NCBI GenBank assembly: GCA_030390025.1
Contig: CM059448.1
Coordinates: 12,586,001 to 12,650,000 of the forward strand
Length of the DNA stretch: 64,000 nt
Direction: 5' to 3'
Source of the DNA: Squalus acanthias
Lineage: Eukaryota
Shown here: in pieces, positions 5,139 to 64,000 of the stretch
Layout: the number at the start of each line of letters is the position of its first letter
Position numbering within the stretch: the first letter of the stretch is position 1
Position numbers and translations under genes: made by a program
Notes under the pieces: generated by a model
Database searches by the model: none
The model's input: the letters and a program-made list of their open reading frames with translations, nothing else
Told to the model about the DNA's origin: nothing

Positions 5139-5146
5139 GCTTGCTT

Positions 5147-31977: not shown

Positions 31978-32066
<89 letters not shown>

Positions 32067-32197
32067 AGATGCTCCTTTAAAAGCTACCTCTTCGATCAAG
32101 CTTTTGGTCATCTGTCCTGATCTCTCCTGTGCCTCCGTGTCAAAAATGTTGTTTTATTGATATCGCTGCTGTTAACATTTGAGATGTTTTACTACGT
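31940..32197 (+). mobile_element. L2 LINE 3' fragment containing an expanded C-run/(CT)n microsatellite (31970-32065)
   Basis: taagatgctcctttaaaagctacctcttcgatcaagcttttggtcatctgtcc matches the reverse complement of the adjacent L2 copy. The two copies are tail-to-tail. Confidence 0.75.
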
Positions 32198-32745
32198 CAA
32201 CAACAACAACTTGTATTTATATAGCGCCATTAACAGCGTAAACGGTCCCAAAGCGCTTCATACGAGTATTATAAGATGAAAAAATTTGACACCGAGCCAC
32301 ATAAGGAGAAATTAGGGCAGGTGACCAAAAGCTTGGTCAAAGAGGTAGGTTTTAAGGAGCGTCTTAAAGGAGGAAAGAGAGGTGGGGAGGCGGAGAGGTT
32401 TATGCAGGGAATTCCAGAGCTTAGGGCCCAGGCAACAGAAGGCACGACCACCAATGGTGGAGCGACTTATAATCAGGGATGCTCAAGAGGGCAGAATTAG
32501 AGGAGCGCAGATATCGGTGGGGGGGAGGGAGGGTGTGGGGCTGAAGGAGATTACAGAGATAGGGAGGGGCGAGGGCATGGAGGGATTTGAAAACTAGGAT
32601 GAGAATTTTGAACTCGAGACGCTGCTTAACCGGGAGCCAATGTAGGTCAGCGAGCACAGGGGTGATGGGTGAACGGGACTTGGTGCGAGTTAGGACACGG
32701 GCAGCCGAGTTTTGGATGACATCAAGTTTACCTCGGGTAGAACTT
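32198..32745 (-). mobile_element. L2-clade LINE 3' part
   Basis: ORF 32421..32825(-) contains LDVIQNSAARVLTRTK...ITPVLADLHWLPVKQRLEFKI...APPYL (L2 RT C-terminus). 3' tail ggcgctatataaatacaagttgttgttg. Confidence 0.9.
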
Positions 32746-34523: not shown

Positions 34524-34864
34524 TTTCCCTCTTTCTCTCCCTTCCCCTCTTTCTCTCCCTTCCCCTCTTTCTCTCCCTTCCCCTCTTTCTCTCCCTTCCC
34601 CTCTTTCTCTCCCTTCCCCTCTTTCTCTCCCTTCCCCTCTTTCTCTCCCTTCCCCTCTTTCTCTCCCTTCCCCTCTTTCTCTCCCTTCCCCTCTTTCTCT
34701 CCCTTCCCCTCTTTCTCTCCCTTCCCCTCTTTCTCTCCCTTCCCCTCTTTCTCTCCCTTCCCCTCTTTCTCTCCCTTCCCCTCTTTCTCTCCCTTCCCCT
34801 CTTTCTCTCCCTTCCCCTCTTTCTCTCCCTTCCCCTCTTTCTCTCCCTTCCCCTCTTTCTCTCC
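34524..34864 (+). repeat. Perfect 18-bp polypyrimidine minisatellite (TTTCTCTCCCTTCCCCTC) x ~19
   Basis: Read directly. Produces the FPSFSP, ERKRGR and ERGEGR pseudo-ORFs. Confidence 0.95.
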
Positions 34865-34925
34865 TCAGCCCCACATTGCTGAATGATGTCAGCAAGTGAC
34901 GCCACCGTGGTGACTCCATATTAAC

Positions 34926-39594: not shown

Positions 39595-39646
39595 TGAGGG
39601 CGTGTTTAAATGTCCCGAGGACCAGCTTCCACTTGACTACGCAAAG
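39595..39646 (+). CDS. TRAF4: TRAF4 exon 2 (end of RING region), (S)EGVFKCPEDQLPLDYAK
   Basis: Preceded by a (TTC)n polypyrimidine tract and TTTCAG acceptor, followed by GTAAAT donor. The 52-nt exon translates to EGVFKCPEDQLPLDYAK, identical to the recalled human TRAF4 segment. Confidence 0.96.
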
Positions 39647-41873
39647 GTAAATGACCGTCGCGCGTGCAAATTGCCCTTTCCTCACAGCAACTTTTACTTT
39701 TCTTGCACTAATTAGGTAGTCTGAGTTACCAAAATGTAATTTGCTGCAATTCATCTGCCTGTTCAGCACAGCACCATAGTGCGTGAGGAGGCCCCCCCCC
39801 CCCCCCACCGTATCGGGAGATACCTTAGGGGTCCTGCTGCTGCCTTTGTCATCTTATTCGCTACAGCACTCAACCACAGCTCTGGTAATTGTTGTAATGA
39901 GCATGCCTTCAGGCTCACCACCATCTTTACCCTTTTATTGTGCAGCTTACAAAGGCCTTTTTTTATGGTTGTCTTCCTCTCTTTTGGGGGGGGGGGGCCC
40001 CCGCCACCCAATTTTCTCCGGTATTTTGCCCCAAGTGTCTGTTCTTTGTGTGCGCTCCTAGATCGCGAGTTAGGCTATTCGGCATCGCTAGCTAAGGCCA
40101 AAATTCCTGCCCTCGCCGCCCATACACATTTCCGGCAAGGAATGGTCACTGGATAGCTATTGGAGCCAGGCTATTTTTTTTTTTGTTGCTTCTTTCCCTT
40201 CCCACTACTCCCATGGCCCAGGGATGTTGCGGGAATTTTGTGAGACCCCCCAACTCTGCACAGACCATGGATTGAACCTGGGACCCTCTGGTCTGTATAA
40301 CCTGTAGCACAATTATCCATTAAACCACTCGCAGAAAGCTCACTATTACATTTCTAGAAGCGAGAGGTTTTCATTGCTATTATTGGGCGCACACTCATTC
40401 CAGTTTCTTAAATTTTTGTTTTTTATCCTCTCTCCTGGCCGCTAGTGTTTGCCTTCATTTTATTGCAAGTGGGGTGGGGAGGAGTGTGACAAGAAGAGTT
40501 TGAAATAGTGAGTGTAAGGCAGGACTGCTCTCAAACTATTGCCACTCTGCAAGCTCCTCAGTCCCTCAAGAAAACCGTCCAAAATGTGACCAAGAGCAGG
40601 CACTCCACCGTAAGTGCTCAGTCCGTTTGTTAAAATGTGACAATCAGCATTTTTAAGAATTTTTTATGACTGCAAAATAAAAGAATACTGAGGCATTTGA
40701 CCAGAAATTGTGAGGAGCTAAAGAACAAGTTATTAAAAAATATATAGTTTTTCCATAATGTAATGTGACATTTCTTGTAGTTCAAAGTTGCCCTGTCACA
40801 TTCTATTAACTAACATGCAGCAGCAACATTTCTTCAAGATTTTATGTGTTGCCCTGTAAATCCAATTTGCTCAAGAAATTTATACGGTATATCTTGGGAG
40901 TTGTGAACGAGGTTTCCAACAATGATGCTCTTGACAATGGCCCACTGTTTGTTTTGTTTTTTTTATTTAATCTCTTGAGTGCGCTAAATTGCATCTGACT
41001 TCCAGCTCGAGAGCCAGGCTCAGCTTCTCTCCCCTCTTTCGGCTGGAGAAATGGGCATTTGTCCGCGGGTTTGCAAGGATTGAAGACTGTGTGTTTATTC
41101 TAAACTCGCTGCTTCCCTGCTTTCACCCAGTGTTACCGTGCCAAAAGGAACTGCGATTGAAATCGCTTTTCATTCACTCAGTTGGTAGATTGAGAAATTA
41201 GCACAGTGAATGTGACTATTTGTCAATGGGCGCTTGAATGCACTTTGTGATATTGCTTCCCCTCTCCCGTCTGAGCTGGCAGTGAAATCCCAGTGCATGG
41301 AGAGACGGTGGGAAATGCATTTTTATTTTAGTACTGCTTCTATTGCAGATGTTCCTTTTTTTCTTTTTGTTCTCCTGTACCTCATCAATCTCTTGACGTT
41401 TAGAAGTAGTTTCATTTCCTCAAGCGTTTGTTCTAGGGAGCATTCTTTGAAGTTATTTTTAGATTGTAATCCTCTCATGTCGTTGTTCAATTTTTAAAAT
41501 TCCCCCCCCCCCCCCCCCCCACTGTCCAAACTGTAAATCTTTCTGTTCTCTCTAGCCTCTTTTTTATTAGCCTTGAAGTAAGTGAGGAGATGGACTTTTA
41601 TATTTCCTCCCTCTCTCCTTCCGTTCTCCTCTCCACGGGCTGCAGGCAACTGTATCTCTGGCCCTGAAGGGAGGAGCCTCTGGACCGTGGACTATCTGCT
41701 GGCACTCGCAGCTCTGATGTTTTCACCGGGTGTGCTGCTTACTGGATTGTGTCCATAGATTGCGCATCTGCTACAGATAATACATTTAGCTTCCATATGG
41801 AGCTTCAACTAAAGACCCAACTAAGAACTGTTGAAACTCTAAACTGAGGCAAACTTGCTTGACTATAGACACC

Positions 41874-41986
41874 AAAACAAAAGCAAAATGCTGGAGATCT
41901 GTAATTAAAACCAGAAAATGCTGGAGACGCTCGACGTCAGTGAAGAGAAACAAGAGTCACCGTTTCAGGACGATGACCTTGCATCA
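41874..41986 (-). mobile_element. Diverged Penelope family B 3' end
   Basis: aaatgctggagatctgtaattaaaaccagaaaatgctgg...cgtttcaggacgatgaccttgcatca. Confidence 0.6.
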
Positions 41987-43792
41987 TAATCATTGACCGT
42001 CGACATCCTCGGGATTCATTAAACCCGTGGTTTGATGGTCAGTCTTCAGCTGCCTGGGTGCTTTTTGAAGTTGTTGCGTCAAGAAGGGCAAATGAGCTCT
42101 TCCCCGCAGCTCGGGGCGGCAAAGGACGCAGAAAGCTGACCAATACACACCAGAAGTTTCCAGCTTTGATCCCCGGTCTATACTGAGAGAGCTGATATCA
42201 GTCAGTGGCAGTGGGGGGCATTACAAAGTTTCCTGGTCCTGATTGTGGGCCCTCCTAGAGTGTGGGGAATATCTGGTGAGGACAGGGTTGTATCCAGCTG
42301 TGCTGCCCCTGATAATTGAAAAATTCTGCTGAGAATTAATGTCCAGGCTGGTAAAAATGAAGTGACTATTGGGCACGGTTCCTGAAGGTGGTGGTTGTTC
42401 ATGGAACAGACCACCGCATGAGTTGTTGCCTTCAGAAGAAGTGGGGGTGGGAGGGGAAAGAAAAATAATCAGTAATTACATTTGCGAGCTTACCTCTCTG
42501 AGCTATTCGGTACGCACAGTTACCTTTGAAGGCCACCAGTGTCACTTTTCTCCTCTTGCCTGTGTGTGTGCTCTGTAATAATGCCGGATGAATAAGATGG
42601 TTTTGCTTTGTGTTTTTTTTTCCACATCAAACGCAACCTTTCCCCACACTTCCCTTTGCTGGCCCTGAATGGATTTGTTGTTCCTCAGTCACTGGGGACA
42701 ATGACGTTTCTGTTGGGTTCCAATGTATTTCAACAGGGAAAAACCACAGTCTGTTTCAGTAAATGCTCTCGGGTTGCTTGGTTAAAGAAAACTGCAGCAG
42801 CAGCAAATCGCTACCCAGCCACAAATTGCAAGGAAATGAGGTAAAGGCGAAGAATCTCTGAGCATGAATGATGGGACTGACCTTCCACGTCAGATCTCTT
42901 GTGAAAATGCCGGTTTCAGTCCTTGGTTTCCATCATCTTTTGGCACAAAGTCTGATTTGTGCAAAAAAAGGAAATCTGTGTCTGCTTGTTCCCCCGATGG
43001 GTATGGTTATAGATGAGAGAAAAACACTTGAATTTTTCTCTCGCTCTTGCAGGGGTGAGTGGCTCTATAATGTTCGTCGACAAATGAATCCGTGACCGTG
43101 TTGGGTCAAAATAATTGTCATGTAAGGCTTTAGATATTAAAAATCATTTCTATCCACTTCTTAGCCAGTCCTTTCCAAGCGTGCCTCCTAGTCAGCTGGG
43201 CATGGGGTGTCATTGATTGACAGCTGTCCACAGCTAAGGCTGCCTCGTGCTCTTTAATCTTTCCCAGTCGTCCCCCCGCCCTCCCCCAATTCTATCTGAA
43301 AGAAAGTGCCTTTCATAACCTCCCAAAGATTGTCGCAGCCAATGAAATATTTTCTGTGGTGTAGTCACATGTTACATAGGGAAACGGGCCCAGCAGTGAC
43401 CCGCAAACAGCAATGGGATAAATGAGCAGATAATCTCTCTTTTTTGTGATGTTGGTTGAGGGATAAATGAGAACTCCTCTTCGAATAGCACCATGGGATC
43501 TTTTCCGTCCACTTGGGAGGGCGGATGGGCCCTCCGTTTAAAGCCTCGTCTGAAAGACGGCGCCTCCAATCACGCAGTGCCCACTCAGTACGTCACTGAA
43601 GTGCCCAGGTTCTGTGGTCAATTTGACCTATCTTTTCATGCTGCTCCTCGGTCAAGTGGGTAAACCTAAGCCGAGGTATTGTTGCAGCCTGTGGTACAAG
43701 AAAGAAAAGAAAATGTTTGCATTTGTATAGTGCCTTTCATCTTCTGGGCCTGTGTCCCAAAGTGCTTCATAGTTAATGAATTACCTTTGAAA

Positions 43793-43897
43793 CAAAAGCC
43801 AGATGCTGGAAATCTGAAATAAAAACCGAAAATGCTGGAAATACTCAGCAGATCAGGCCAGCATCTGTGGAGAGAGAAACCAAGTTAACGTTAGCAT
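43793..43897 (-). mobile_element. Penelope family B 3' end inserted in a DeuSINE, 14-bp TSD
   Basis: gatgctggaaatctgaaataaaaaccgaaaatgctgg...gttaacgtt flanked by AATTACCTTTGAAA (43779-43792) / AATTACTTTTGAAA (43898-43911). Confidence 0.75.
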
Positions 43898-44627
43898 AAT
43901 TACTTTTGAAATGTTGTCAGTGTTATTTGACACACACAGCAGACAATTTGTGCACAGCACAAGATTAACGACCGTTTAATCTGGTTTTGATTGTGTTGAT
44001 TTGAGGGATGGGGAGAGCCCAACAAATGGCCACGGAATCTATTACCACCCACCTAGCCCGGCAGATGGGTCTAAAAGTTCATCCAAAAGACAGCACCTTC
44101 AACAATGCAGCACTCCTTCAGTACGCCACTCAAGTGTCGACCTAGATTTAAATGCTGAAAACCTGTAATGGGCCTTAAACCCTTCTGACTCGAGAGCAAG
44201 TGTGCGGAGCCAAAATGACAATTCAGGAGCCAAGGTGACTGAAGGGAAGAACGATGCAGGATGCCTCCTTCCTGAGACAACCTGAGCAAAACCAGGAACT
44301 CCTCTCCTAGAGAACATAGGAACAGGAGTAGGCCTTTGAGCCTGTTCTGCCATTCAATTAGATCATGGCTGATCTGTATCTTGGCTCCATTTGATCCAGC
44401 GAGGGTGCAGAGAAGATTTACGAGGATGATACCAGAAATGCCAGGGTATACATATGAACAACAGGCTGGGTCTCTCTTCTCTTGAAAAAAGAAAGCAATA
44501 GAGATCTTTAAAATTATGAAAGGTTTTGATAAAGTAGAGACAGAGAGTGCTTCCACTTGTGGGGAAGAGCCTAACTAGAGGCCATCAATATAAGATAGTC
44601 ACCAAGAAATCCAATAGGGAATTCAGA

Positions 44628-45054
44628 AGTGGTTAGCACTGGTGCCTCACAGCGCCAGAGACCCGGGTTCGAATCTGACCTCGGGTGACTGTCTGTGTGG
44701 AGTTGCACATTCTCCCCGTGTCTGCGTGGGTTTCCTCCGGGTGCTCCGGTTTCCTCCCACAGTCCAAAAATATGTGGGTTAGGTTGATTTGGCTATGATA
44801 AATTGACCCTTAGTGTTAGGGGGGATTAAATATGTGGGGTTATGGGGATAGGATGGGATATGTTAGGGGGAATTAAATACGTGGGGTTACGGGGGTAGGG
44901 TGGGATATGTGTACTGTGGGGATTAAAGCAGGGACAGGGTACTGGATTTGGATGATCAGCCATGATCGTATTGAATGGCGGAGCAGGCTCGACGGGCCGA
45001 ATGGCCTACTCCTGCTCCTAGATTCTATGTTTCTATGTTTCTATGTTTCTATGT
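44628..45054 (+). mobile_element. HE1 / V-SINE with a ~46-bp internal tandem duplication, joined to a CR1 3' tail
   Basis: gtggttagcactggtgcctcacagcgccagagacccgggttcgaatc head and V-domain ctgtgtggagttgcacattctccccgtgtctgcgtgggtttcctccgggtgctccggtttcctccc. Ends (TTTCTATG)n. Confidence 0.9.
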
Positions 45055-45098
45055 TTTTTCTTTACCCAGAGAGTGGTGAGAATGTGGAACTCACTACC

Positions 45099-45468
45099 CT
45101 GACACTCCTATGCAGTACTGAGGGAATGCTGCACTGTCGGAGGTGCCGTCTTTCGGATGAGATGTTAAACCGAGGCCCTGTCTGCGCTCTCGGGTGGATG
45201 TAAAAGATCCCAAGGCGCTGTTTTGAAGAAGAGCAGGGGAGTTATCCCCGGTGTCCTGGCCAATATTTATCCCTCAATCAACATAACAAAAACAGATTAT
45301 CTGGTCATTGTCACATTGCAGTTTGTGGGAGCTTGCTGTGTGCAAATTGGCTGCCGCGTTTCCTACATTACAACAGTGACTACACTTCAAAAGTACTTCA
45401 TTGGCTGCAAAGCACTTTGAGACGTCCGGTGGTCGCGAAAGGCGCTATATAAATGCAAGTCTTTCTTT
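45099..45468 (+). mobile_element. 5'-truncated DeuSINE inserted in CR1
   Basis: ctgacactcc...ggcgctatataaatgcaagtctttcttt. The CR1 sequence aactcactacc|..ggagtggttgaagcg resumes across it. Confidence 0.88.
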
Positions 45469-47940
45469 CACGGAGTGGTTGAAGCGAATAGTATAGATGC
45501 ATTTAAGGGGATGCTAGATGAGTATATGAGGGAGGAGGCTCGATAGTTTTAGATGAGGAAAGACGGGAGGAGGCTCGAGTGTAGCATAAATGCCGGCATG
45601 GACTGGTTGGACAGAATGGCCTGTTTCTGTGCTGTATATTCTATGTAATATCCCTTGATACCCCTACCTAATAAAAACCTGTCAACCTCTCTTTCCACGG
45701 CCTTTTGGGGGTAAGAATTCCGGATTTCCACTCCCTTTTGCTTGAAAAACCAGCGGAACCCACTGTTTCTCAGATTGGGATCTGTGCTTGTCACTCCTAG
45801 GTGAGACTCCAGCACTTTGGTGGTGTTGCTGATTCTTTCCTTGCCCACCCAGCCCCCAAACGCCCTTCTGGCTTCTCTCGCTAATTGTCCATTGTACAGT
45901 CTTGCATTCTGCCAGCGCAAATGTTGATCAGACCCACATCCTTTCAAATCATCTGAACATATCAAAAGGTGCATTGTGAACAGTTGATCTTTGGGCAACA
46001 AAATAGTCTTCCATCAGTGACCAAGTTAGGAAACACACCACCACATCGGGATCCTACCACAAACAGTATAAATAAAGCCATCACAAAACTCTTTAGAATT
46101 GAGCACAAATAACCTCACTAAACACTTTCCCACTGCCAGCAGCCCCTTTCAATTTTCTAATTTCATTCTGACGGAACTCCTCAGTGAGTGAGTGCAATCC
46201 TCTGCTTGACTCTAAATAACTGGCAGCTTTATTTAAATAAGCATCTCCAGGTTCTGAATCTATTTTGTTTTCCCAGCTTTTGCCTTTTGAGTGAGTGACA
46301 TGGTTTTTTTTTGATGCCGCTGTGAGGAGGTACTTTCACGCTGAAAGTGAATTGTACAATCGAGGGAGCAGCGGATCGGTTTCCCTCCCTTTTTCCACAT
46401 CAAGCAGATTAGTACAATTCCGTGTCTGTTCCGTGGTAGCTGCCTGGAGAGTAGGGTTCTGTAACTCTTTGTGGGGAGGACCTCCTGAGGTTGAACTGAT
46501 GCCAGTGATGGGGAGGGAGCCGAGGCATAAGAAAGCTTTTTTTATTCTCAAATGTGGGCTTAATGGCATTTTTCCATCTAAATTAAAGGCCGTACTCCTT
46601 TCACTTTTTTTCCCTTCCCTTCCCCCTCGTCTCTGTGATTGTTGATTCAAAGTTAGAAAGAGTCACATTGTATTACTTGAAGGAGTGTAGTAAATATTAT
46701 TTAAAAATGTTTTTTTTTTTAAAAAAACAGTACAGTTGTGAAGGGTGAGAGGTTGGGACAGTCATTCCATCCCCACAAAATGAGCAGCTCTTGCTCATTG
46801 GGGGGGCCCATCGTCCTATTGTCTGGGCTGGTATGACAGAATAGAGTGGATCAAATTCTTGCGCAGTATCACCCGAGCCTGCATAGGTTAATAAAGTTAA
46901 CCGTGTACCATGAGCTATTGAATATCGGGTAAGATGAAGTAGAGTGGGGGAGGAGGCTCCCGTGGAGCATAAAATCTGGCACAGACCTGTTGGGCCAAAT
47001 GGCCTATTTCTGTGCTGTCCATGACTTGATATTAAACACCTTTTTAAAGCTTTTGGGTTCGGGTGGGAGACGCAGCTGAGATAAAATGTTGGCGTTGCAA
47101 GTATTCTCCCCCTGGCCCCATCACTCGGTGTAAGATGTGCCCCCCCCCCCCCCCCCCCCCACACACACACATACCCAGATCGTCTGCGCCGTAATATATT
47201 CATTTTTTTCCTTTATTCTCTTGCCATCAGCAGAAAACTGTAGTCAAATGTATTCCACACTTTAATGAGACCCAGCAGGCGCCTTGTGGCTGCAGCCCAG
47301 AAACTGGATGAATGTAGCTCTTGGAGATGGCTCCCCCCTGACTTGTGAGCCGGTGAGGAGGTTGGCGCTTTTCGAGGTCGGGGAGCCAGAACCCACGTGA
47401 CCTGCGGCCAAACACTGAGCAGATTCATCAGCGTGAAGCTGCCAGTGATGCCTTTTTAACTGGTGCAGCTTTTAATTTCTGTTTGGCTGTTGTATTCGTT
47501 TTAATCTCCGGTTTGTTTATGCCAAATATATTTATAGTACAATTAATTATATGTCAAGAGTTCAAACTGTGTGATGAAGATGTCAGCCTTCATGCAGCGT
47601 GTACAGATTCAGAAAGGGAGCTCGGGGGGTCCCGCCAGCTTTGTGCTGTTAACAGATTCACTGTGTAGCCCTGTGGTATACAGTTGGCTTTACATATAAT
47701 GCTGGCAGAAAAACATCCCAAGTATCGTGCTGGGTAAAGCTCTCGGTGAGATGACACGGGTGTTTTATCTTGCCAGACTTTGAAGTTCTTGGAATCACTC
47801 ATCAATGATTCTGCGCACACACTTGGGCTGTGCTGCAAGGTGGTGGACTGGCTGTCCTGCAACTAGTGCTCGTAAAGTTGCCTCTGAAAAGTGAGGCATT
47901 GCTATGAGACGGAGTGCAAATGAAGTAAACTTGTATGCAG

Positions 47941-48332
47941 AGTTTAGAAGAATGAGAGGGGATCTCATTGAAACGTATAAAATTCTGACAGGGCTAGACA
48001 GGCTGGATGCAGGGAGGATGTTTCCCCTGGCTGGGGGGGTCTGGAATGAGGAGTCACAATCTCAGGATACGGGGTAGGACATTTAGGACTGAGATGAGGA
48101 GAAATCTCTTCATTCAGGGTGGTGAACCTGTGGAATTCTCGACCACAGAAGGCTGTGGAGGCCAAGTCACTGAATATATTTAAGGAGATGATATAGATTT
48201 CTAGACACAAAAGGCATCAAGGGGTATGAGGAGAGAGCGGGAATATGGTATTGAGATAGAGGATCAACCATGATCACATTGCATGGCGGAGCAGGCTCGA
48301 AGGGCTGAATCATCTCCTCCTATGTTTCTATG
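47941..48332 (+). mobile_element. CR1 (HER1-like) LINE 3' fragment
   Basis: agaagaatgagaggggatctcattgaaacgtataaaattctg (RRMRGDLIETYKIL) ... cctatgtttctatg. Confidence 0.9.
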
Positions 48333-49589
48333 CTGCACCAGGAGAACCTGGAGCTGGGTCTGTAGTGCAATTGGATTTCATTGCAGTCAGCATTCAATCG
48401 GGCTTGAACTTGTAATCTACCAACTGTTGAGGTAAAGACTGAATGATTATTTCATTCATAACCATGAGAATACACGGGACCGAAAAAAGAGCATTGCGTT
48501 CTATCTGGCCAGTCCCACTTTAAATTATCGAAGTAAATTGGGTAGCGGTTGCCCTTAGTGTTGACGTTGTACCGTTGACTAGCTAGGTGTACCTGAATGA
48601 GGTGAGAAGGCTCCTCCTTGGTGATTTTTCCATCCTTTGCAATGAACACCCAACCAAAATCAATGAAACCCTCGCTTGGCACAGGCCCCAATCCCTTGTG
48701 TCTATCAAGGCCTTGATTTGAATGCTTTATTCCCCTTCTATTTAAATCAGGCACAGAACTGGTAATTCAGACCAGCTTTGCTGGCCCTACTGCAGTAACT
48801 TTAGGGACCACGCACAGACATTACAAATTTACATTGTGCGCTAGAACAGTACAAAGCTTAATTTGCACCAGGCTCAAATCTAAACCCACTTCTGTACTGA
48901 TTCAGTTCTAGTCCTGGTTGCTACAAGGACCAAACCGCAGTGATTTAAGCAGCGGGGGCTGAGTTGCAATGATTCTGAAGTGTTTGTATTGCAAAAGTGC
49001 AGCACGGATTTGGTATTGGATTGAGAGTTCCAACAAGCACTCCCCATGGGTTTACTTGCTGAGCTTGCATCAACTGGGGAAGAAGAAAGCATCATTTACC
49101 AGGGTAGCATTTGTTCTTTGAATTATAACAGGACATTAAGACAGGTCATTTAGTCCTTTGAATTGCACCCTGTACTGCAGAATTGGATTGATTATAAAAA
49201 ATATATATATATCCAAGATATATGGTGTATTAAATAAATAAGGGCAAAGGTACATAATCCTGGGTCGGGTTGAAATATTACCTGATTTCTTGAATATAGC
49301 TGCAATCTGTGCTCTTCGTGATGCTCAAAAATGTATTTATGTATATTTTATGAAGAACAATAAATCTCTAGTCTTCGGGCTGGTCTATGCATTTTTATTG
49401 ACTGTTTAGTGGCTACCGATATACTGTAATGCCCAACAAATATCAATCATATTTCTGACATCTTTACCTACTTTTTAATTCTCTGCCTCTCTTCCTGTGT
49501 CACTGGAAGTGAGGGGACTTGTGCTGCAGTGCCATCTATCTGTGAACACAAAACTTGGTTGGCTCGCTCAAATTGAAGGCTTTATCTGG

Positions 49590-49980
49590 CTAGGCCGCGG
49601 GATGGTGGGTGAAAGCACTGCCTGGTGCAGTACTGCACCATTTAGACCAGAAGGCCCCAGGTCAGATTCTGGGCCTGTGCTGTGAGGTTAGGGTACCTCA
49701 CCCTGAACAGCAATTGAGAACACAACCAATAGCCTCGGCGCCCCTGGGTGAGGCTATGGTCCTGCCCGAGCTTTATTCGGTGACCCCTGCTTGAAACCGT
49801 GTGTGGTTGGCTATCCGGTGGGAACAGGATTAGGCTCATCAGTGATGCCCACTGTGGAGGAATAGTCTCCTCGCACTCACTGTCTCGGCTCGCGTATGAA
49901 GATTGATACTGAGGCATGCACGAATGGACTAGTACCCGAACCAAGACTCCGCACCTTCAGGAGGTTGGGGTGGGGGGGAG
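49590..49980 (+). mobile_element. Ancient, highly diverged SINE-like family (unclassified), one of >10 copies
   Basis: Shared blocks aggtccc(a)ggttc.atcc..ggtctgtgct, gtgacccctgct.gaaa, gacaggat.gggct..gtgatgccc, cactcactgtct.ggctc.c.catgaaga. These recur near 9150, 11250, 27830, 36850, 37560, 40070, 42160, 60480 and 63610. Confidence 0.6.
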
Positions 49981-50488
49981 AGATGCGCTGTTTTGCATTT
50001 TGAAAGATGCATGTCTGCAAGCAGCCATAAACATTGGCCAGCTCTCTAACTTCCCCGAGAGATTTTTGACAAATCGTTAATAATTGGTATCTGTAGTGAA
50101 CAGTTCCACCAATCAGTGGGACAGTTTATAATTGACCTACTTGCACACACACAAACCCACCAGTAATTTGAGGCCGCATTTAACAGTTCAAGTAATGAGT
50201 CAGAGTGAAGAAAAGAGATGAGACAAAGGTTCTTAAGGGGGAAAAAAACATTTCACGTTGCAATTACAGTCCCTCTTTAAACAAGTAATACTCACTGTCT
50301 GCTTATTATTCCGAGCAGTTGCTTGCTTGTGGGCCACTTTCAGGAATGCTCTAGCCAGTTGCGCTATGGAGTGGCAGTGGACAGCTCTGATCCTGAGTCC
50401 TCACCACTTTTTTCCTGCCCCCCCCCCACCCAGAGCCTCTGACTTGTAGAAAAGGGTAGTCAAGTGGGCCTCCCACTAGTCCTCTGGA

Positions 50489-51054
50489 TAGGGTTGCCAT
50501 TGCCAACCCTCCAGGATTGGCCTGGAATCTCCAGCAATCGCAGATTAATCTCCAGGACACTGCTGCGAGCAACTCTGGAGAAAAATCATTGGGGCATCAA
50601 AGAAAATTGTGTTTTCCATTTTCTTTGAACACTTCACCCGGCCTAAACCTCTCCACCTCTCTTCCTTTAAGACGCTCGTTAAAACCTACCTCTTTGACCA
50701 AGCTTTTGGTCATCTGCCCTAATTTCTCCTTGTATGACTCGGTGTCACATTTTCTGTCTTGTAATACTCCTGTGAAGTGCCTTGAGACATTTTAACTATG
50801 TTAAAGGTGCTATATAAATACAAGTTGTTCTGTTTATTAGTTATAAAAATATTGGAGATAGGGAAAGAAAGCTGCTTGACTGACCATCCAGTTGGGTAAT
50901 GGAGAGTCTTTTAGTTTTGCAATTGGTGTGGGATGACGGTGTGCCGTGAGGATGGACATGTTGGGCAACCAATGGAGGGAGCAGGGCGGTGGAGGAAGGA
51001 GGTCATGTGGTGATAACCTCCCAGGAATATGGCCACCCGGAGTTGGCAACCCTA
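50489..51054 (+). mobile_element. hAT-superfamily MITE with TAGGGTTGCCA TIRs and perfect 8-bp TSD, containing an L2 3' fragment (~50637-50830)
   Basis: TIRs TAGGGTTGCCA ... TGGCAACCCTA. TSD CCTCTGGA at 50481-50488 and 51055-51062. Confidence 0.9.
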
Positions 51055-51770
51055 CCTCTGGATGTTGAGAGAAACCCCATCTCCGAACAGAATTCTCGTT
51101 TCTGTCACTGGGGAGCCAAGGAGAGAGAACCGCACTGAATCTTGGCTTCAGCATCTTCTGACAGCCAACAAAGGCCTGGAGACGGTGAGGACCAACTCTG
51201 CCAAAGGCTAACAGTGATGGGGGTGCTGGGTGGGGCAATGGGTACGATGGGTTTTATCGCCCTATATGGGCAGTATCTAAGGAACTTGATGTAGCTTTTG
51301 GAATGCAAGATTTTAACACTATATTACATTTAACTACCTTTGTGAACAGACAATTTTTTTTCTTGCGAACTTTGCGCTGGCTTTTAATGTAGGCATCTCT
51401 GCTCATCTGATTATGTTCTAAGTGCTCTTATAAATATATAAATATATTCACCACCTCTTGATGTATGATCCTGTCGTGGGATTTTTCTTGGTGAGGAAAG
51501 GTTAGAAAAATTGATTCTTCTGCCTTGAAAGGAGGCGATTGAGAAGGGGATGTTACATGGCTGTGCAAGATACCAAGTGGAACAGAAAAGATTTAATCCT
51601 GAGCAATATTTCAAGTGAAAGGACTCCTGCAGGATAAGAGAACCTAGGTGCAAACAGGTAAAAGGAAAATTCATGCAAAGGGTGACCACTACTTGGTAGG
51701 GTCGAAAAGACAAACCCCAAATCATTCACGTTGAAAACTGATGGGGCTGAATGGAAAAGAAAAGAATAGA

Positions 51771-51870
51771 CAGACTTGCATTTATATAGCACCTTTCATG
51801 GCCACCGGACGTCTCAAAGCGCTTTACAGCCAATGAAGTACTTTTTGAAGTGTAGTCACTGTTGAAATGT
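51771..51870 (-). mobile_element. DeuSINE 3' fragment
   Basis: cagacttgcatttatatagcacctttcatggccaccggacgtctcaaagcgctttacagccaatgaagtac. Confidence 0.85.
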
Positions 51871-53695
51871 TGCAATGGCCCCTCTCCTCTGTACTGATCT
51901 TTCATTTCTACTTTTCCAGTTATTTTTAGACTTGTATATTTCGAGTCCGAGTTAAGTTGGAATTGGATTAGTCTTGACAGACTTTTGAAGTTCTAAATTG
52001 AGCCAGTAGAATATTCAAGTCTTACAGGAAAGGGGGCGGTCATTTGGCCCATTGTGCCTTTGCCAGCTCTGAGCTGTCCACTTAGCCCCCCCATTCACCT
52101 AACCTTTGCTAAGGCCCTTCCTATTTTTTTTCTTCAATTATTTGTCCACTCTTAATATCTTGAGTCTGCTTGCAACACTGTATCTGGATATTCAATGTCC
52201 CAACAACCCGCTGCCTGTTTAAAAATATATTTTTGTAAACACTCTTTGTTCTTTTGGCAATCTTAACTTGTGTGTTCCATTTGCCCCAAAGGTGAACCCA
52301 CAAATCTTACCCTAGTATCACGCAGTGGTCTTGCGTTTAAACACTAAATTTAAGCCAACCTGTGTTTGCTATTTTGATTTTTAATTCACCAGAGGTTTTC
52401 CAAAAAGGCCATCTGGTCCAATAAACCTTCCTACTTTATGATGGATTTTAACCCCACCTAATTGTGTATTTGAACTCATTGATACTGTTTGCTTCAACGA
52501 CTTTTGCCTGTAAATGATTTCACAAGCCTTACTACCTTTTTTTTGTGTTTAAAAATGTTACCGCGCCTTCCCTTCTTGCTCCCAACATCCTCATTGGTTG
52601 CCCTGGCATTTAATACTCGCGTTGCTTGGAGTTTGTAACTCCAAAATAGCAGTTCAGGCACTATAAAGGAGTACGGTTTGTTATATAATGACGGCAGATT
52701 TTGATGCAGCTTGTTCAAGGTGGTTGTGGTGATTTTTAATGATCTGCGCCTTTTTCAAGGTACTAATCTATAACTAAGGGAGCAACAAGAGAGATTTCAA
52801 GTTGAAGGAAATTCAATTTATCAGCAGCGTTTGGAGCCGATGCACAAAAGTGCCGCAGGGTGCCTCGTTCCATAGTTGGGACAATGTGTTGAAAGACAAT
52901 GTTTCGGACATGTGATACTGGGCATCCAAATAGATTTCACAGTCCAGGCAGTTGGGGTTCCCTGCACGGTTATTACAGCAGCTCTTGGTCGAAGGGAAAC
53001 CAGCCACCTCTTTCCAAAGGGGGCGGGGTGTCAGCTGCAGAGAATACACAGATCATAGTGGGATATGACTCACCAGACCAAAAGGCGAGCCCAACTTTCA
53101 TGTAGCAGATGGTTTGCACATTTACTACACGTGGCAGAGGGTTTAAAAGCACTGGCACCGCAACACAACACCACTGTTTCATTCAGTCTGTGTGTGGAGA
53201 AACAATTACCCACTGGCCAGGCAGGCAGCAAGCAGTGAGGCGGCCCTGTTATTTACATGACATCTGAGGCACTGTTGCTGGCTTTCAGCTCTGGATAAAC
53301 TTATTCTAGTGCTCAAATCTTTCAGGTCAAAACACTTCATTTTAAAATAAGAAGGGTCTGCAAATAAAAATAGATTAAACATGCCATAACTGTTCCACTC
53401 TGAAGACCTCTTTTTTTTTTCCCTGTTGGAATGTAACAACAACTTGCATTTCTCTAGCGCCTTTTAATGTAGTAAATCACCCCCAAGGCGTTTCACAGGA
53501 ACGTTATCAAACCCAATTTGACACCGGGCTACGTAAGGAGATATTCGGACTGGTGACCAAAAACTTAATCAAAGAGACGAGTTTTAAGGAACATCTTAAA
53601 GGAGATATGATGTGGCGATGCCGGTGTTGGACTGGGGTGGACAAATGTGAGAAGTCGCACAACACCAGGTTATAGTCCAACAGCTTTATTTGAAA

Positions 53696-53732
53696 TCACA
53701 AGCTTTCGGAGCGCTGCTCCTTCGTCAGGTGA
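53696..53732 (-). ncRNA. Minimal type-I hammerhead ribozyme motif (PLE family A), antisense to TRAF4
   Basis: Exact reverse complement of 54317-54353. Confidence 0.65.
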
Positions 53733-53761
53733 AGTGAAGAGATGCATATAGTCACAGCATA

Positions 53762-54186
53762 CAGGAAACTTTCGTTTATCCGGCATCGACGGGACCGGCG
53801 TGGTGCCGGTTTATTGAAAGTACCGGATAACAGAGAGTTATATCTACCGAGGCTATTTTTAACAAAGAGACTCCAAGCAGCACGGGAGAATCTACTCATG
53901 CGACTGCAATGTTTCGGACTTGCGACAGCGCCAGGAGGCCGAGTAGTGGCAATTTTGAAAAGTACCCCTACTGACTAAATCGGCGTTCGCGGACTCGGAC
54001 TCGGACTCGGGATCGGCAACATTGCCGGTTATTTGAGAGGATTTTTCGGAGCACTCGGCGTTCGCGGAGACTCGACTGCGACTCGGCAACATTGCCGGTT
54101 ATTTGAGAGGAGTTTTCGGAGGATGATTTTTGCCGGTTAAGCGAGAATTCCGGATATTTGGGTGCCGGATAAACAAAAGTTTCCTG
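53762..54186. mobile_element. Tc1/mariner-superfamily (pogo/Tigger-like) MITE, 425 bp, TA TSD
   Basis: 24-bp TIRs CAGGAAACTTTCGTTTATCCGGCA / TGCCGGATAAACAAAAGTTTCCTG (1 mismatch). TA at 53760-61 and 54187-88. Internal ~70-75-bp tandem duplication at 53980-54123. CpG-rich. Confidence 0.9.
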
Positions 54187-54316
54187 TATATAGTCAGAGA
54201 ACACTGCCAGATGATTACACCTCCAGGTGTGATAAAGGGCAGTTGGAAAGATTAACTGTAATCATCTGGCAGTGTTCTCTGACTATATATGCTGTGCCTA
54301 TATGCATCTCTTCACT

Positions 54317-54353
54317 TCACCTGACGAAGGAGCAGCGCTCCGAAAGCTTGTGA
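54317..54353 (+). ncRNA. Minimal type-I hammerhead ribozyme motif (PLE family A), sense to TRAF4 intron 2
   Basis: UCAC-CUGACGA-A-GGAGC agc GCUCC-GAA-AGCU-U-GUGA. Predicted cleavage after 54349. Confidence 0.65.
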
Positions 54354-54551
54354 TTTCAAATAAAACTGTTGGACTATAACCTGGTGTTGTGCGACTTCTC
54401 ACATTTAAAGGAGATAGAGAGAGGGGTTTGAGGAATTCCAGAACTTGGGGGCCTAGACAGGTGAAAGAAATCTGGCAAAGCTTTAATACATTTTTTTCAC
54501 AAAGAAGTGCAATCCAGCTTCCTAATGACGGTCTCTGTTAAGATTCAATTA

Positions 54552-54928
54552 TCATTGAAACTTATAAAATTCTAACAGGACTAGACAGACTAGATGCAGG
54601 AAGGATGTTCCTGATGGCGGGGGAGTCCAGAACCAGAGGTCACGGTCTAAGGATAAGGGGTAAGCCATTTAGGACTGAGATGAGGAGGAATTTCTTCACC
54701 CAGAGAGTGGTGAACCTGTGGAATTCTCTACCACAGAAGGCAGTTGAGGCCAATTCATTAAATATATTCAAGAAGGAGTTGGATATATTTCTTAAGGCTA
54801 AAGGGATATGGGGAGAAAGCAGGGACAGGGTACTGAATTTGGATGATCAGCCATGATCTCATTGAATGGCGGAGCAGGCTCGAGGGGCCGAATGGCCTAC
54901 TCCTGCTCCTATCTTCTATGTTTCTATG
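54552..54928 (+). mobile_element. CR1 (HER1-like) LINE 3' fragment
   Basis: ORF 54605..54856 SRTRGHGLRIRGKPFRTEMRRNFFTQRVVNLWNSLP plus 3' UTR and (TTCTATGT) tail. Confidence 0.92.
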
Positions 54929-55392
54929 AAAGCTCAGGCCTGCGCACTGGGTTATTCTAGCAATAGGTTGCACCATCTGTCTGCTCCCCCAGTGCCTCGC
55001 CAAGTTTGTCCAGCCAGCCACTGATCAGGAAGGTGTCGAGTTCAATAGCTGGCCTGTGCCGAGTTGGATGATCTCCGTTGCGGAGCCCCTTAAAGTTGCT
55101 AAAATTGGCTTCAGTGCCTTCAGGTGAGCGAGGGGCACCACTCGGGTGGAGATTGTGCTGCTGTCCACTCTCCAGTGACCCCACCTGACAGTGTTGCCTG
55201 TTGGCTTGACTGTGGTGACCCTGTGGTCAGATAACCTGCTGAAACTCTCCGCTCCTCGTAGGTGAACAGTGGTTGCTTGGTTGGGGTGTTGGTGCCTGTG
55301 GATGTGTTTCCCCAGCAAGGAGTCACTGTCCACATTTCATTTTTTAAAAGGTTATTTTCTGTAGTATAAAGAAGAAACTTATAACCGCCAAT

Positions 55393-55547
55393 CCATGTTC
55401 CCTGTAATTTTTTTTTGGGTGCGCAGCCCCTTTAAGTGGCTGTGCGGCCCATTCAGATCTTCGCAGGCGCGGTTATTCCAATTGAAAAGCCGGCGGGCAG
55501 CCTGCACGGGAGCTCCAGACTGCTGCGCAGCTTAAAGGGGAACATTG
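55393..55547. mobile_element. hAT (Tip100/MER91-like) MITE, 155 bp, inserted in a DeuSINE
   Basis: TIRs CCATGTTCCCTGTAA ... TTAAAGGGGAACATTG. 8-bp TSD CCGCCAAT / CAGCCAAT. Confidence 0.7.
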
Positions 55548-55866
55548 CAGCCAATTTGTGCACAGCAAGGTCCCACGAACAGCAAAGGAGATAAATGGCC
55601 AGTTAATCTATTTAGCTGTTGGTTGAGGGATGTATTTTGTCCAGGACATGGTCCTTGATTTTTCAAAAACCACCTTGGAATCTTTTAAATCCAACTGAAC
55701 AGGCAGACAGGGTTGGTTAACGTCTCATCTACAAGACAGTGCCTCTGACAACGCAGCACTCCCTTCGTGCTGCACTGAAGTGTCTGACTAGATTATGTGC
55801 TCCCGTCCTGGAGTGGGGCTTGAAGCCTTTTTAATTCGGAGGCGAGAGTGATACCAACTGAGCCAA
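55548..55866 (-). mobile_element. Diverged DeuSINE
   Basis: cagccaatttgtgcacagcaagg...ggaggcgagagtgataccaactgagcca. Confidence 0.75.
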
Positions 55867-56269
55867 AGTGATAAGTGTTGTTTAGGATGTTTTCTGATCA
55901 TTAAGAGGGCTGAAATGAGGAAAACAAAGATGTTTTTAAATGGATGTTATCCCCCCCCCCCCACTGGTGTGGTAATGAACATCACAGAGCAGAAAAGCCC
56001 CAGGTTCAATCCCTGTTTTTTGGTGAATTAGTTTATCTTAGTCTGGGGAGTGATGGACCACGTCAATGGATCTGTGTCCCTGAGCTAGGTTTTGCCACGG
56101 GGGGGAAAAAAAATGTTTTAATAGGGCTTTGCTCGCTTGCTTGTAATTTCCCCCCCCCCCGAAACTAGTTTTGTTTGCTGGTTGAATTTATTATTAATAA
56201 TCCGCCCTTTTGTTGTCACAAGAAGCTATTTTATGCATTGAGGTTAAGCTTAATCTTCTTGCTTTCCAG

Positions 56270-56374
56270 ATCTATCCTGATCCAGAACTGGAAGCCCAGG
56301 TCCTAGCTCTGGTCATTCGCTGCATTCACAGTGAGGAAGGCTGCAGATGGACAGGACAGATTAAACAGCTGCAG
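56270..56374 (+). CDS. TRAF4: TRAF4 exon 3, IYPDPELEAQVLALVIRCIHSEEGCRWTGQIKQLQ
   Basis: TTTCCAG acceptor, GTAAGT donor, 105 nt, phase 0/0. Matches human IYPDPELEVQVLGLPIRCIHSEEGCRWSG. Part of ORF 56210..56458. Confidence 0.97.
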
Positions 56375-57118: not shown

Positions 57119-57280
57119 CCCCATCTTTCGACATGCCCGTTCAATGTGATACCTTGCCCAAACCGCTGCACAATCAAGCTGAGCAGAAGGGACCTGGCTG
57201 AACACCTGCAGCACGATTGCCCGAAGCGTCGCGTCAAGTGTGAATACTGCGGCAACGACTTCACTGGAGAAGGTTATGAG
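57119..57280 (+). CDS. TRAF4: TRAF4 exon 4 (TRAF-type zinc fingers), PHLSTCPFNVIPCPNRCTIKLSRRDLAEHLQHDCPKRRVKCEYCGNDFTGEGYE
   Basis: TTTTACAG acceptor, GTGAGG donor, 162 nt. Cys/His spacing and sequence match TRAF4 zinc fingers. Confidence 0.97.
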
Positions 57281-57295
57281 GTGAGGACACTAGAG

Positions 57296-58933: not shown

Positions 58934-59708
58934 TGTCAGCTGTGGCTCAGTGGGTAGCACACTCGCCTCTGAGTCAAAAGGATGCGGGTTCAAGTCCCAC
59001 TCCAGAGACTCGCGCACAAGAATCTAGGCTGACACTCCAGTGTAGCGCTGAGGGAACGCTGCACTGTCTGAGGTGCTGTCTTTCAGATGAGACGTTAAAC
59101 CGAGGCCCCGTCTGTCCTCTCGGGTGGACGTAAAAGATCCCGTGGCACTATTTTGAAGAAGAGCAGGGGAGTTCTCCCCGGTGGCTTGGCCAATATTTAT
59201 CCCTCAATCAACATCACTAAAACAGATTCACACAGAATCCCCACAGTGCAGATAGAGGCCATTTCGGCCCATCGAGCCTGCACCGACAAATATCCCACCC
59301 TATCCCCGTAACCCCACGTATTTAATCCCCCCTAACACTAAGGGTCAATTTATCATAGCCAAATCAACCTAATCCGCACATCTTTGGACTGTGGGAGGAA
59401 ACCGGAGCACCCAGAGGAAACCCACGCAGACACGGGGAGAATGTGCAAACTCCACACAGACAGTCACCCGAGGCCGGATTCGAACCCGGGTCCCTGGCGC
59501 TGTGAGGCAACAGTGCTAACCACTATGCCACCGTGTTGCCCTAGTCATTATCACATTGCTGTTTGTGGGAGCTTGCTGTGCGCAAATTGGCTGCCACGTT
59601 TCCTACATTACAAGTGTGACTACATTTCAAAAGGGACTTCATGGGCTGCAAAGCACTTTGGGACGTCTGGTGGTCGTGAAAGGCGCTATAGAAATGCAAG
59701 TGTTTCTT
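58934..59708 (+). mobile_element. Full-length DeuSINE interrupted by an HE1 SINE
   Basis: Head at 58934. The consensus aaacagatt|..gtcattatcacattgc is split at 59228/59542. Confidence 0.9.
59229..59541 (-). mobile_element. Full-length HE1 / V-SINE
   Basis: Minus strand GGGCAACACGGTGGCATAGTGGTTAGCAC...GGGTTCGAATCC (A/B boxes), V-domain, CR1-like tail gggccgaaatggcctc...gattctgtg. Confidence 0.92.
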
Positions 59709-60037
59709 ATTTACAGTTTGAACTTTTGTTGGGCAGTTGGGGGTGGCTAGCAACGTGTCCGGCTGGGGATTATGGCAGTCTCCCCATGTCACGGCCCTTG
59801 AGCTGACCGGACGGAAAAACATATGTTCTATTCCCATAGTTCAATTGTTCTCCACCTTTTTTTAATAGTTGAAAAGCAAAAAGAGGTGGTGGAGTTTGAA
59901 GTGGGCATTAGCCCCGTTAATGTTCGAATGGAAGCACTTCTTTCTTTGGCTGCATTCTGCTCTGAAAGAGTTAGGCTCTTGGCTCTCTCTTTTTTGCAGT
60001 AATGAGATTGCACTCATGTGGTTACTTTCTCCCACAG

Positions 60038-60199
60038 AATCACCAGGGAATTTGCCCTCAGGAGAGCGTGTACTGTGAAAACAAATGCGGGGCCAGAATG
60101 ATGCGGCGCCTGCTATCACAACATTGCCTTACGGACTGTCCCAAACGCACACAGCCCTGCAAGTTCTGCGGCAAGGAGTTTGTGTTTGACACGATTCAG
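60038..60199 (+). CDS. TRAF4: TRAF4 exon 5 (TRAF-type zinc fingers), NHQGICPQESVYCENKCGARMMRRLLSQHCLTDCPKRTQPCKFCGKEFVFDTIQ
   Basis: CCCACAG acceptor, GTTGGT donor, 162 nt. CPQESVYCENKCGARMMRRLL is characteristic of TRAF4. Confidence 0.97.
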
Positions 60200-61084
60200 G
60201 TTGGTCCCCTTCATTTGTTAGCCCAAAAGAACGGCGCTCAGATTCTTGGGGTGAATGATGCTGACGCTAACACCGTCCAAATGATTTTCAGTTATTTGAT
60301 GCCTTCTCTTCAGATACATGGAATCATTTCATGGTTGCCGGAATGAACCAGATGGCGCTCTTCAGAAAAGGCTCGAGTTCAACTTGGCCTTGAGTGAAAT
60401 ATAGATTGCAAGAGAAATGTCATTTAGAAAACAAAATGCTCGCTCTGGTAGAAGTCGGTGTTCTATAGCTCCTCAGATGGTGCAGATCAGTCAGACCCAG
60501 GATCAATCCTTGGCCTGTGTTGTTACCTAATTAGAGGACGTCAATTGACATTGGAGCGTCTGGGCTGAAGTGGGGGGGAGGTGAAGTATCCGGGGTTCCC
60601 TCTCCTGATTGGCTCCTACTGAGAGATGAGTTTGTGGACGTCGGGTCAAGGCAGGCTGTGATGCCCTTCATGGTCGACTAGGCTGTCAACACTCCTTGTC
60701 CAGATTCACACATGAAACGGCCACTTGGGTGAGGTACTGAGGAGCTGCCTGGAGAGGAAGAGAGAGAATAGAAGAGTAGATAGTTCTCGGGGGCCATAAT
60801 GACGCACTCGTGCTGTGTGTGATGGACTGAGGGGGGACAGGGAATCATGACATTGGCCATACTGAGTCCCCAGTCTCAAGACGGACCAGCAGGACATGCT
60901 GTAGAGGCAGGACACTGCCCCTGCCTGTACCCAGGGAATAAGCAGCAGAAGTAGGAGTGCACGTCACTTGCTCTGGTAGTGGTACAGGTTAGTATGTAGA
61001 TCAATAGCTGTATAGAGGGGTGGGGGGGGGGATAATAATTTATAATTGATTTAGCCTGATTTTTGTGTTTAATCTTTTGAACAG

Positions 61085-61240
61085 AACCACCAGTATCAGT
61101 GCCCACGGTACCCGGTAGCCTGCCCCAACCAATGCGGAGTGTCAAACATTGCCAGGGAAGATCTTGCCAAGCACCTGAAAGACAACTGCAACACAGCCAT
61201 GGTACTTTGCCCCTTCAAAGATGCAGGCTGCAAACACAGG
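61085..61240 (+). CDS. TRAF4: TRAF4 exon 6 (last zinc finger), NHQYQCPRYPVACPNQCGVSNIAREDLAKHLKDNCNTAMVLCPFKDAGCKHR
   Basis: GAACAG acceptor, GTAAGA donor, 156 nt. Matches human SHQYQCPRLPVACPNQCG...VLCPFKDSGCKHR. Confidence 0.97.
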
Positions 61241-62959: not shown

Positions 62960-63488
62960 TCATAGAATCTTAGAAAGTTACAGCACGGAAGGAGGCCATT
63001 TCAGCCCAAAGAGCTATCCAGCCTAATCCCACTTCCCAGCTCTTGGTCCGTAGCCCTGCAGGTTAGAGCATCCCAAGTGCACATCCAAGTACTTTTTAAA
63101 TGTGGTTAGGGTTCCTGCCTCTACCACCCTTTCAGGCAGTGAGTTCCAGACCCCCACAACCCTCTGGGTGAAGAAATTTCCCCTCAAATCCCCTCTAAAC
63201 ATTCCCCCAATTACTTTAAATCTGTGCCCCCTGCTTTTTGACCCCTCTGCTAAGAGAAATAGGTCCTTTCTTTTTACTTTATCTAGGCCCCTCATAATTT
63301 TATACACCTCAATAAGGTCTCCCCTCAGCCTCCTCTGTTCCAAGGAAAACAGACCCAGCCTATCCAGTCTTTCCTCATAGCTAAGATTCTCTACTCCTGG
63401 CAACATCCTTGTAAATCTCCTCTGTACCCTCTCTAGTGCAATCACATCTTTCCTGTAATGTGGTGACCAGAACTGCACGCAGTATTCT
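62960..63488 (-). mobile_element. CR1 LINE 3' part with open RT C-terminal frame
   Basis: ORF 63023..63478(-) QFWSPHYRKDVIALERVQRRFTRMLPG...RRLRGDLIEVYKIM...FFTQRVVGVWNSLP, followed by the 3' tail ttctaagattctatga. Confidence 0.93.
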
Positions 63489-64000
63489 GCATTTCCAGTT
63501 GCTGAATAGGGAGGGGTGCTTCACTTAAAATTATTCAACATTTATAAATGAGCTTTAAGTAAGAGATTCCCCTATGATTTGGTTGGTAAGTGTCCTACCC
63601 AGTGTGGAACCGAACCAGACAGACCAGGTTTGATCCCTGAGCTACATTACGTTAGCTGATCTCAGCCAAGGCTACAACTGGCCCAGCTCTCCTGATCAGG
63701 CTTTGATTATCATCCAGGAACCCCTCCTGTTACTGTTAGCTGGACCTATGGGGAGAGAGTGCACTCTCTGTTGAGAAAATGGACTCTGCATGTCTAGAAT
63801 CTCAATGGCTTGTTATGAAAACTCTTCCACATGGTGATTAGTTTCTACAGGTGTCAGATATCCTACTGCGCTCCCCCTCCCCAAACCCTCCCAAAGAAAA
63901 TTGCTGGAAAATGCTTGCTGGATCAGAAGAACTATATCCTAGCAACAAGCAATAACCTCCTGGAAATGAGGGGAGAAAGCTGGAGGGAATAATGGTTGTC

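Follow-up and report, generated by a model that had tools for sequence, protein, structure and literature searches.

Penelope-like elements (PLEs) typically insert as inverted, 5′-truncated copies with a tail of 30–40 bp on one side only, an arrangement that is standard in this group and the origin of which is called unresolved (PMC8557442). In the rotifer Adineta vaga, Pen2a and Pen3a show head-to-head inverted, 5′-truncated pseudo-long terminal repeats (pLTRs) between short target site duplications (TSDs) (Arkhipova et al., PMC3846280), and endonuclease-positive (EN+) PLEs carry a hammerhead ribozyme in the pLTR. We analysed a stretch of 64,000 nt from Squalus acanthias (assembly GCA_030390025.1, contig CM059448.1, positions 12,586,001 to 12,650,000, forward strand), which is called the window and to which all positions refer. 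An intron of the TRAF4 gene within this window holds a nest of three layers: a fragment of a long interspersed element (LINE) is split by a Penelope-like hairpin, and one arm of this hairpin is split by a miniature inverted-repeat transposable element (MITE). These are three known kinds of element in an ordinary nest, and none of them is of a new kind. As an instance of transposon nesting within a long intron of a vertebrate gene, the locus matters little by itself; it is a clean teaching example, since one arm keeps the empty site of the other. The new lead is a base specific for the type of arm, common to two of the at least three tailed hairpins found per 64 kb.

The middle layer is a 797-bp insert bounded by the TSD TTAAAGGAGATA (53596–53607 and 54405–54416, both +), the copies of which match at 12/12 positions and have no third occurrence in the window. 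With 10 nt of slop allowed at each end, the chance of such a match is ~7e-5. The first 2 nt of the right copy also match the end of the adjoining arm. A tail of 35 nt (53608–53642, −) is present on one arm only. The outer part of this tailed arm (53643–53761, −) and its inner part (54189–54219, −) lie on either side of the MITE; a loop of 37 nt (54220–54256, no strand assigned) and the tail-less arm (54257–54406, +), which contains no MITE and shares 2 nt with the right TSD, follow. With 53762–54188 taken out, the arms are identical at 148 of 150 positions, the mismatches being at 53684/54365 and 53752/54297. An imperfect palindrome of 20 bp (54214–54233, no strand assigned) crosses the junction of arm and loop; its fold has a z of −2.15, and 6 of 200 shuffles were as stable. 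An earlier note, made from the letters of the sequence, had described an L2 fragment split by an insert of about 800 bp with a TSD, arms of about 150 bp, a 35-nt tail and a 37-nt loop. All of these are present, the pairs of TSDs and terminal inverted repeats (TIRs) hold on alignment, and the three layers stand with their identities, L2 being a tentative label.

Removal of the insert and one TSD copy in silico rejoins the outer layer, and the LINE fragment then aligns without a break to three copies in the window, which have no duplication at the corresponding site. According to the alignment to its paralogues in the window, the 3′ part of the host fragment (53435–53607, −) comprises the end of ORF2 (second open reading frame) and the 3′ untranslated region (UTR) up to a (GTT)n tract, the left TSD included; the remainder (54417–54460, −) is 5′-truncated at this locus. 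Identity is 74–77% to the copies at 32202–32372 and 50657–50829, which are 88% identical to one another. The 32.2-kb copy (32202–32870, −) runs into an ORF2-like C-terminus, which is followed by a UTR of ~90 nt and the (GTT)n tract. From motifs of the ORF2 C-terminus the fragment is presumably of the L2 type; the ORF2 end of the paralogue had neither a Pfam match nor a named Atlas cluster. An ORF2 end, a 3′ UTR of ~90 nt, a short simple-repeat tail and several window copies with 74–88% identity are all features that it would share with the 3′ ends of L2-clade LINEs if it is of this type.

The one-armed absence of a ~30–40-nt tail, which had been put forward as Penelope-like, agrees with the published anatomy (PMC3846280, PMC8557442). 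Further points of likeness to the rotifer elements are the palindrome at the junction and the presence of a pogo element within a pLTR (PMC3846280). In Pen2a, a TATA box lies 20 bp before TCACT (PMC3846280), and the spacing is the same here: the tail-less arm has a TATA box at 54284 (+) and an initiator-like TCACT at 54312 (+), 20 nt past the TATA 8-mer. Nevertheless, there are differences in detail, the tail being 31 bp in the rotifer and 35 nt here, and the TSDs 8–10 bp in A. vaga versus 12–14 bp here (PMC3846280). Compared to the Poseidon element PAc of Anolis (PMC11167929), no ATG lies inside helix II. The ORF-less insert, known here from its non-coding end, is not assignable to a Penelope clade (Poseidon, Neptune or other).

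Both arms carry a hammerhead motif together with the TATA box and the initiator-like motif 20 bp downstream. Minimal type I hammerheads are predicted at 53696–53732 (−) in the left arm and at 54317–54353 (+) in the right arm, the latter with a predicted cut after 54349. Each has a helix I of 4 bp, the core CTGACGA, one extra base and a helix II of 5 bp closed by a G–C pair, as well as GAAA and the palindrome AGCT. For the search we used a descriptor built from Cervera and de la Peña (2014; PMC4209133), which was applied to the window and to 200 dinucleotide shuffles. It gave three matches in 64 kb, all within the pLTR family of the nest, compared to a mean of 0.005 in the shuffles. Core, 4-bp helix I, the G10.1–C11.1 pair, the extra base between positions 9 and 10.1 and the palindromic region of helix III, fit for pairing in a dimer, are shared with the minimal type I hammerheads of metazoan PLEs, while helix II has 5 bp here and 7–8 bp in the Schistosoma families (PMC4209133). 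Position 17 of this predicted ribozyme is U in the nest and C in a related copy at 15.3 kb. The term hammerhead-bearing used in the earlier note is borne out by a complete minimal motif in both arms, as predicted by the descriptor and without a match in Rfam.

Several results weigh against this identification. No Rfam family reached the gathering threshold in the window (0 matches), and none of the nine matches at E ≤10 over 53400–54500 was a hammerhead. The monomer fold is only as stable as that of shuffles (z −0.94); this is expected, since activity of the motif is reported to require a dimer or a protein. Three ORFs of 91–97 aa overlap the nest and have no match in Pfam, and coding sequence for a reverse transcriptase (RT), a GIY-YIG endonuclease or a transposase was not found in it. 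A telomerase-like RT together with a GIY-YIG endonuclease defines the parent element of EN+ PLEs. Thus, the family names are based on non-coding features. By all of these features that could be tested, the insert is likely a Penelope-like pLTR insertion. The three frames themselves were rejected as coding in view of the missing Pfam matches, and the nine weak Rfam matches, mostly of microRNA models to the inner hairpin, were discarded as generic stem-loops far under gathering.

Another hairpin of the Penelope-like family found in the nest, without MITE, is located at 15254–15491 (tail-less arm −, tailed arm +). Its TSD of 14 bp matches at 13/14 positions, and its arms of ~85 bp meet at a filler of 7 nt which repeats nearby sequence. 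The tail (15440–15474) ends ≤3 nt from the end of the tail in the nest and is identical to it at 33 of 35 positions. This hairpin is too short to span the site of the MITE, and a deletion of 11 nt in its tailed arm destroys the hammerhead. It sits inside a LINE-like 3′ end, with its junction at the initiator-like motif. The surrounding LINE-like sequence is presumably CR1-like.

Comparison of the two loci reveals the arm-specific base. Over 74 shared columns the arms differ at one site in the nest and at three sites in the 15.3-kb hairpin, and one site is common to both (53684/54365 and 15398/15301), with G in both tailed arms and A in both tail-less arms. The probability of such a coincidence is 3/74 = 0.04, or 0.02 if polarity is included. 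At 15.3 kb, moreover, the tail-less arm extends beyond the tailed arm by 4–5 nt on the 5′ side. An arm-specific G/A difference is not described in the Penelope literature that was covered.

How could the second arm have formed? The anole Poseidon protein has been shown in vitro to cut and to extend each of the two DNA strands, and its reverse transcription has two start sites which bracket the tail (Frangieh et al. 2024, PMC11167929). By analogy with this biochemistry, the endonuclease would make a staggered cut of 10–12 nt. The 3′ end of the top strand would prime a tailed cDNA at the end of the tail, while the 3′ end of the bottom strand, paired with the RNA over 2 nt, would prime a tail-less cDNA at the upstream start site, and the two 5′-truncated cDNAs would then be joined head to head. 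An origin of the second arm from a second cDNA primed on the bottom strand is the reading that we favour, and we give it about an even chance. A more specific version, that the two cDNAs were primed on both strands of one staggered cut at the two start sites of the RT, with different pLTR templates, and that G/A marks the type of arm, is put forward tentatively and is on the whole doubtful. In the literature search, in which older key Penelope papers were outside the scope, an explicit two-cDNA (twin-priming) model for Penelope inverted repeats was not found; within the same limits, there was also no paper on the shark-type hairpin family.

Alternatively, one cDNA primed at the end of the tail might snap back and be copied into the tail-less arm, so that the arms would be identical at birth. 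Self-priming has been proposed from junction palindromes (PMC3846280), and the imperfect 20-bp palindrome at 54214–54233, a hallmark read in that way, is present in the nest. In addition, position 17 of the hammerhead is T in both arms of the nest and C in both arms of the 15.3-kb hairpin, which is expected if each locus had a single template. The arms of a further hairpin at 19 kb also share a variant that is missing from four other copies of their family. The polarity of the G/A site and the longer tail-less arm at 15.3 kb are nevertheless awkward for a fold-back and speak for two templates: the same change from G to A would be needed twice, in the same type of arm at two loci, and at 15.3 kb the copied arm would outrun its template. 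The palindrome moreover lies away from the tip of the hairpin and leaves 37 nt unpaired. On balance we regard a fold-back as a serious contender that falls short of even probability.

A ready-made hairpin, a non-autonomous Penelope derivative that was retrotransposed as a whole from one master, ancestral to both loci of the family and with G and A in its arms, would explain the polarity directly, and its loop differences would be later deletions. The tail-less ends, with 2–3 nt of microhomology to the target (up to ~10 nt at 19 kb), resemble the 5′ junctions of LINEs. However, the inner junctions are wholly different, with 150-bp arms and a 37-nt loop in one case and ~85-bp arms and a 7-nt filler in the other, and position 17 would have to change in both arms together. 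We consider this origin unlikely.

Concerning the two-template reading, the G/A coincidence was noticed post hoc in two hairpins (n=2, p ~0.02–0.04) and lies beside a run of A, and the asymmetry of the 15.3-kb arms may be due to a later deletion, as that copy also lost 11 nt. Together with the uniformity of position 17 within each locus and the junction palindrome, these points count against the two-template reading. All four combinations of the G/A site and position 17 occur, and none of the models can therefore do without one recurrent change or a recombination. Between the two sites lies the predicted cut of the ribozyme, and cleavage followed by re-ligation could shuffle the two markers. 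If the polarity of G/A is systematic, twin priming and self-priming could be told apart by counting the base in the arms throughout the genome. If there are indeed two templates, G/A would naturally label the strands in hundreds of hairpins of the genome, and the open question of Penelope transposition would become testable from one assembly.

The inner layer is a MITE of 425 bp (53762–54186, no strand assigned) between copies of a TA duplication at 53760–53761 and 54187–54188. Its TIRs of 24 bp match at 23 of 24 positions. When the MITE and one TA are removed, the junction is the exact reverse complement of the right arm, which has no extra TA and hence no excision footprint. Both the TA-flanked MITE in the left arm and the empty site had been pointed out in the earlier note; the agreement is exact at the junction and 148/150 over the arms as a whole. 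The insertion site is the TATA box of the pLTR. TA-rich TATA boxes are natural targets for an insertion of this type. The MITE contains 38 CpGs, with an observed/expected ratio of 1.43 compared to 0.47 for the window.

A TA TSD and short TIRs (≤40 bp) are shared by most pogo families (PMC7386202). For a comparison of the TIRs, Table S1 of Gao et al. (2020; PMC7386202) was searched by motif, and bases were counted by eye in the matching rows. Among these rows, Tig1-like Tigger ends come nearest: the TIR of the MITE shares 18 of 24 bases with Tig1-like TIRs of crocodilians and turtles (alligator, softshell turtle), and a subterminal block shares 22 of 30 bases with a Tig1-like end of the painted turtle; an exact match to the TIR was not obtained by this search of the table. 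Common to the MITE and Tig1-like Tigger elements of the pogo superfamily are the TA TSD and a 24-bp TIR running from CAG to TTATCCGGCA; unlike these, the MITE is non-autonomous, 425 bp long and without transposase, and has G as the fourth base of the TIR (PMC7386202). The ends thus resemble Tig1-like Tigger TIRs, which suits the former description as pogo-like, and the element is likely a Tigger-type MITE. It would likely have been mobilised in trans by a transposase of the pogo family. The MITE, the independent mobility of which is putative, has a copy number of one in the 64-kb window. An internal tandem duplication of ~70 bp (53980–54051 and 54055–54121, 86%) and nine CCGG sites, several of them in a TIR-like context and possibly transposase-binding repeats, were also seen in the MITE.

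The LINE was in place before the Penelope-like insertion, as is shown by the TSD. For the complete series, a LINE fragment, then the Penelope-like end and then the Tigger-type MITE that interrupts the TATA box in one of the arms, successive arrivals are likely, and we hold this order with good confidence; that the MITE arrived last is held with high confidence. The claim that the locus records its own order of insertion stands for the first step. For the second step it is not a strict proof, because it assumes that both arms derive from one sequence: the empty arm would strictly record the order of nesting if the hairpin arose by fold-back, while the arms may also have separate templates. In the latter case, to which the G/A pattern lends itself, the MITE could already have been part of the RNA from which the tailed arm was copied, with the MITE-free arm derived from another template, and would predate the insertion. 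We regard this as quite improbable, because the MITE breaks the TATA box of the pLTR, its high CpG content (38 CpGs, 1.43 versus 0.47) fits the youngest layer, and a pogo insertion into a pLTR has a precedent (PMC3846280). Still more remote is the idea that the MITE was once present in both arms and was excised from the right one, or that the hairpin is an artefact of the assembly. Without the MITE, the left arm exceeds the right arm by exactly one TA, so that the right arm shows no footprint, and the intact 12-bp TSD, the two mismatches between the arms and the second locus with the same anatomy speak against an artefact.

The divergence of the arms is 2/150 = 1.3% (95% interval 0.16–4.8%), or 0.7% if the G/A difference was inherited. 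At the rate of 7e-10 per generation given for the epaulette shark (PMC10587355), this corresponds to an age of ~9.5 million generations (1–34 million), a similar rate and no conversion being assumed; conversion from arm to arm can hide the age of a hairpin. The hairpin is much younger than the LINE, which is 74–77% identical to its paralogues. This part of the earlier claim of recent activity of a PLE and a DNA transposon is retained, but recent activity as such does not follow from the data.

With regard to the genomic setting, the 55-aa translation of one exon matched TRAF4 in PDB (E 9e-28) and zf-TRAF in Pfam, and is 75–85% identical to named TRAF4 proteins of tetrapods. When a named TRAF4 protein from a bird was aligned to the window, exons fell at ~39595–39646, 56270–56374, 57119–57283, 60035–60199 and 61082–61240; exon 1 of TRAF4 had no match in the 64-kb window in this alignment. 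The nest lies in the intron at 39647–56269 (+, 16.6 kb). The assignment to TRAF4 intron 2 is accordingly correct for gene and intron, while the number follows the exon order of the bird reference protein. The sense strand of TRAF4 carries AATAAA at 54359, inside the tail-less arm. In the predicted fold of the TRAF4 pre-mRNA (−453.6 kcal/mol) the arms are paired and the MITE is looped out, and the duplex of ~150 bp would mask the ribozyme on the sense strand. We predict that the locus is inert, and no sign of a host function was seen.

Besides the two hairpins of the first family, a third hairpin, which belongs to a second family whose core is hammerhead-like, is located at ~19005–19242, with arms of ~95 bp, a tail of 30 nt and a probable TSD of 14–15 bp, which overlaps the end of the tail-less arm by ~10 nt. 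Solo fragments of this family are found at 11052–11151, 21234–21292, 41875–41925 and 43790–43892. With three in 64 kb, the tailed hairpin is routine in this genome, and the MITE is not needed for it.

A non-coding frame of 46 aa over the tail and arm of the nest was used as query for further loci of the first family. One search yielded 0 of 3 candidates. A second search yielded 20 matches, 18 of which were long, mostly multi-stretch proteins at 33–52% and were not used. The other two, P0133 and P0135, match at 73% and 67% and have different residues at the G/A codon. Judged by these sequences, relatives of the family exist elsewhere and the G/A site varies among them; the polarity of the arms is not readable from them. 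An exact scan for a 25-nt pattern in bacterial and archaeal genomes gave 0 loci.

Some further repeats of the window were recorded. Two 3′ ends of the host LINE, 32048–32195 (+) and 32202–32870 (−), stand tail to tail, and the latter keeps ~200 ORF2 codons with one frameshift. A repeat of ~470 bp with copies ~90% alike (13073–13539, 22860–23318, 30557–31022, 45099–45468, 58934–59228 and others) ends in a match to the 3′ tail of this LINE and looks like a partner of it resembling a short interspersed element (SINE); ARAGORN, as a check bearing on this repeat, detected no tRNA. Fragments of retrotransposon ORF2 lie at 5116–5964 (+), 54540–54928 (+), directly past the nest, and 63023–63520 (−). 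One of the three is an open frame of 282 aa without a Pfam match, which we take to be RTE-like, and the other two are CR1-like 3′ ends. For a CR1-like fragment of the window, the best named match of nearly full length was to Chiloscyllium punctatum at 60%, compared to 48–56% for entries from birds, turtles and bony fish, which suits a shark without being proof of one. At 23618–23872, an inverted repeat of 47 bp (96%) surrounds 161 bp of SINE-like sequence within another SINE-like copy. A pair of 235-bp repeats in opposite orientation (44628–44912 and 59286–59524, 94%) is younger than most repeats of the window. Finally, a long array of an 18-bp unit with purine/pyrimidine skew at ~34478–34886 causes a strong local GC skew.

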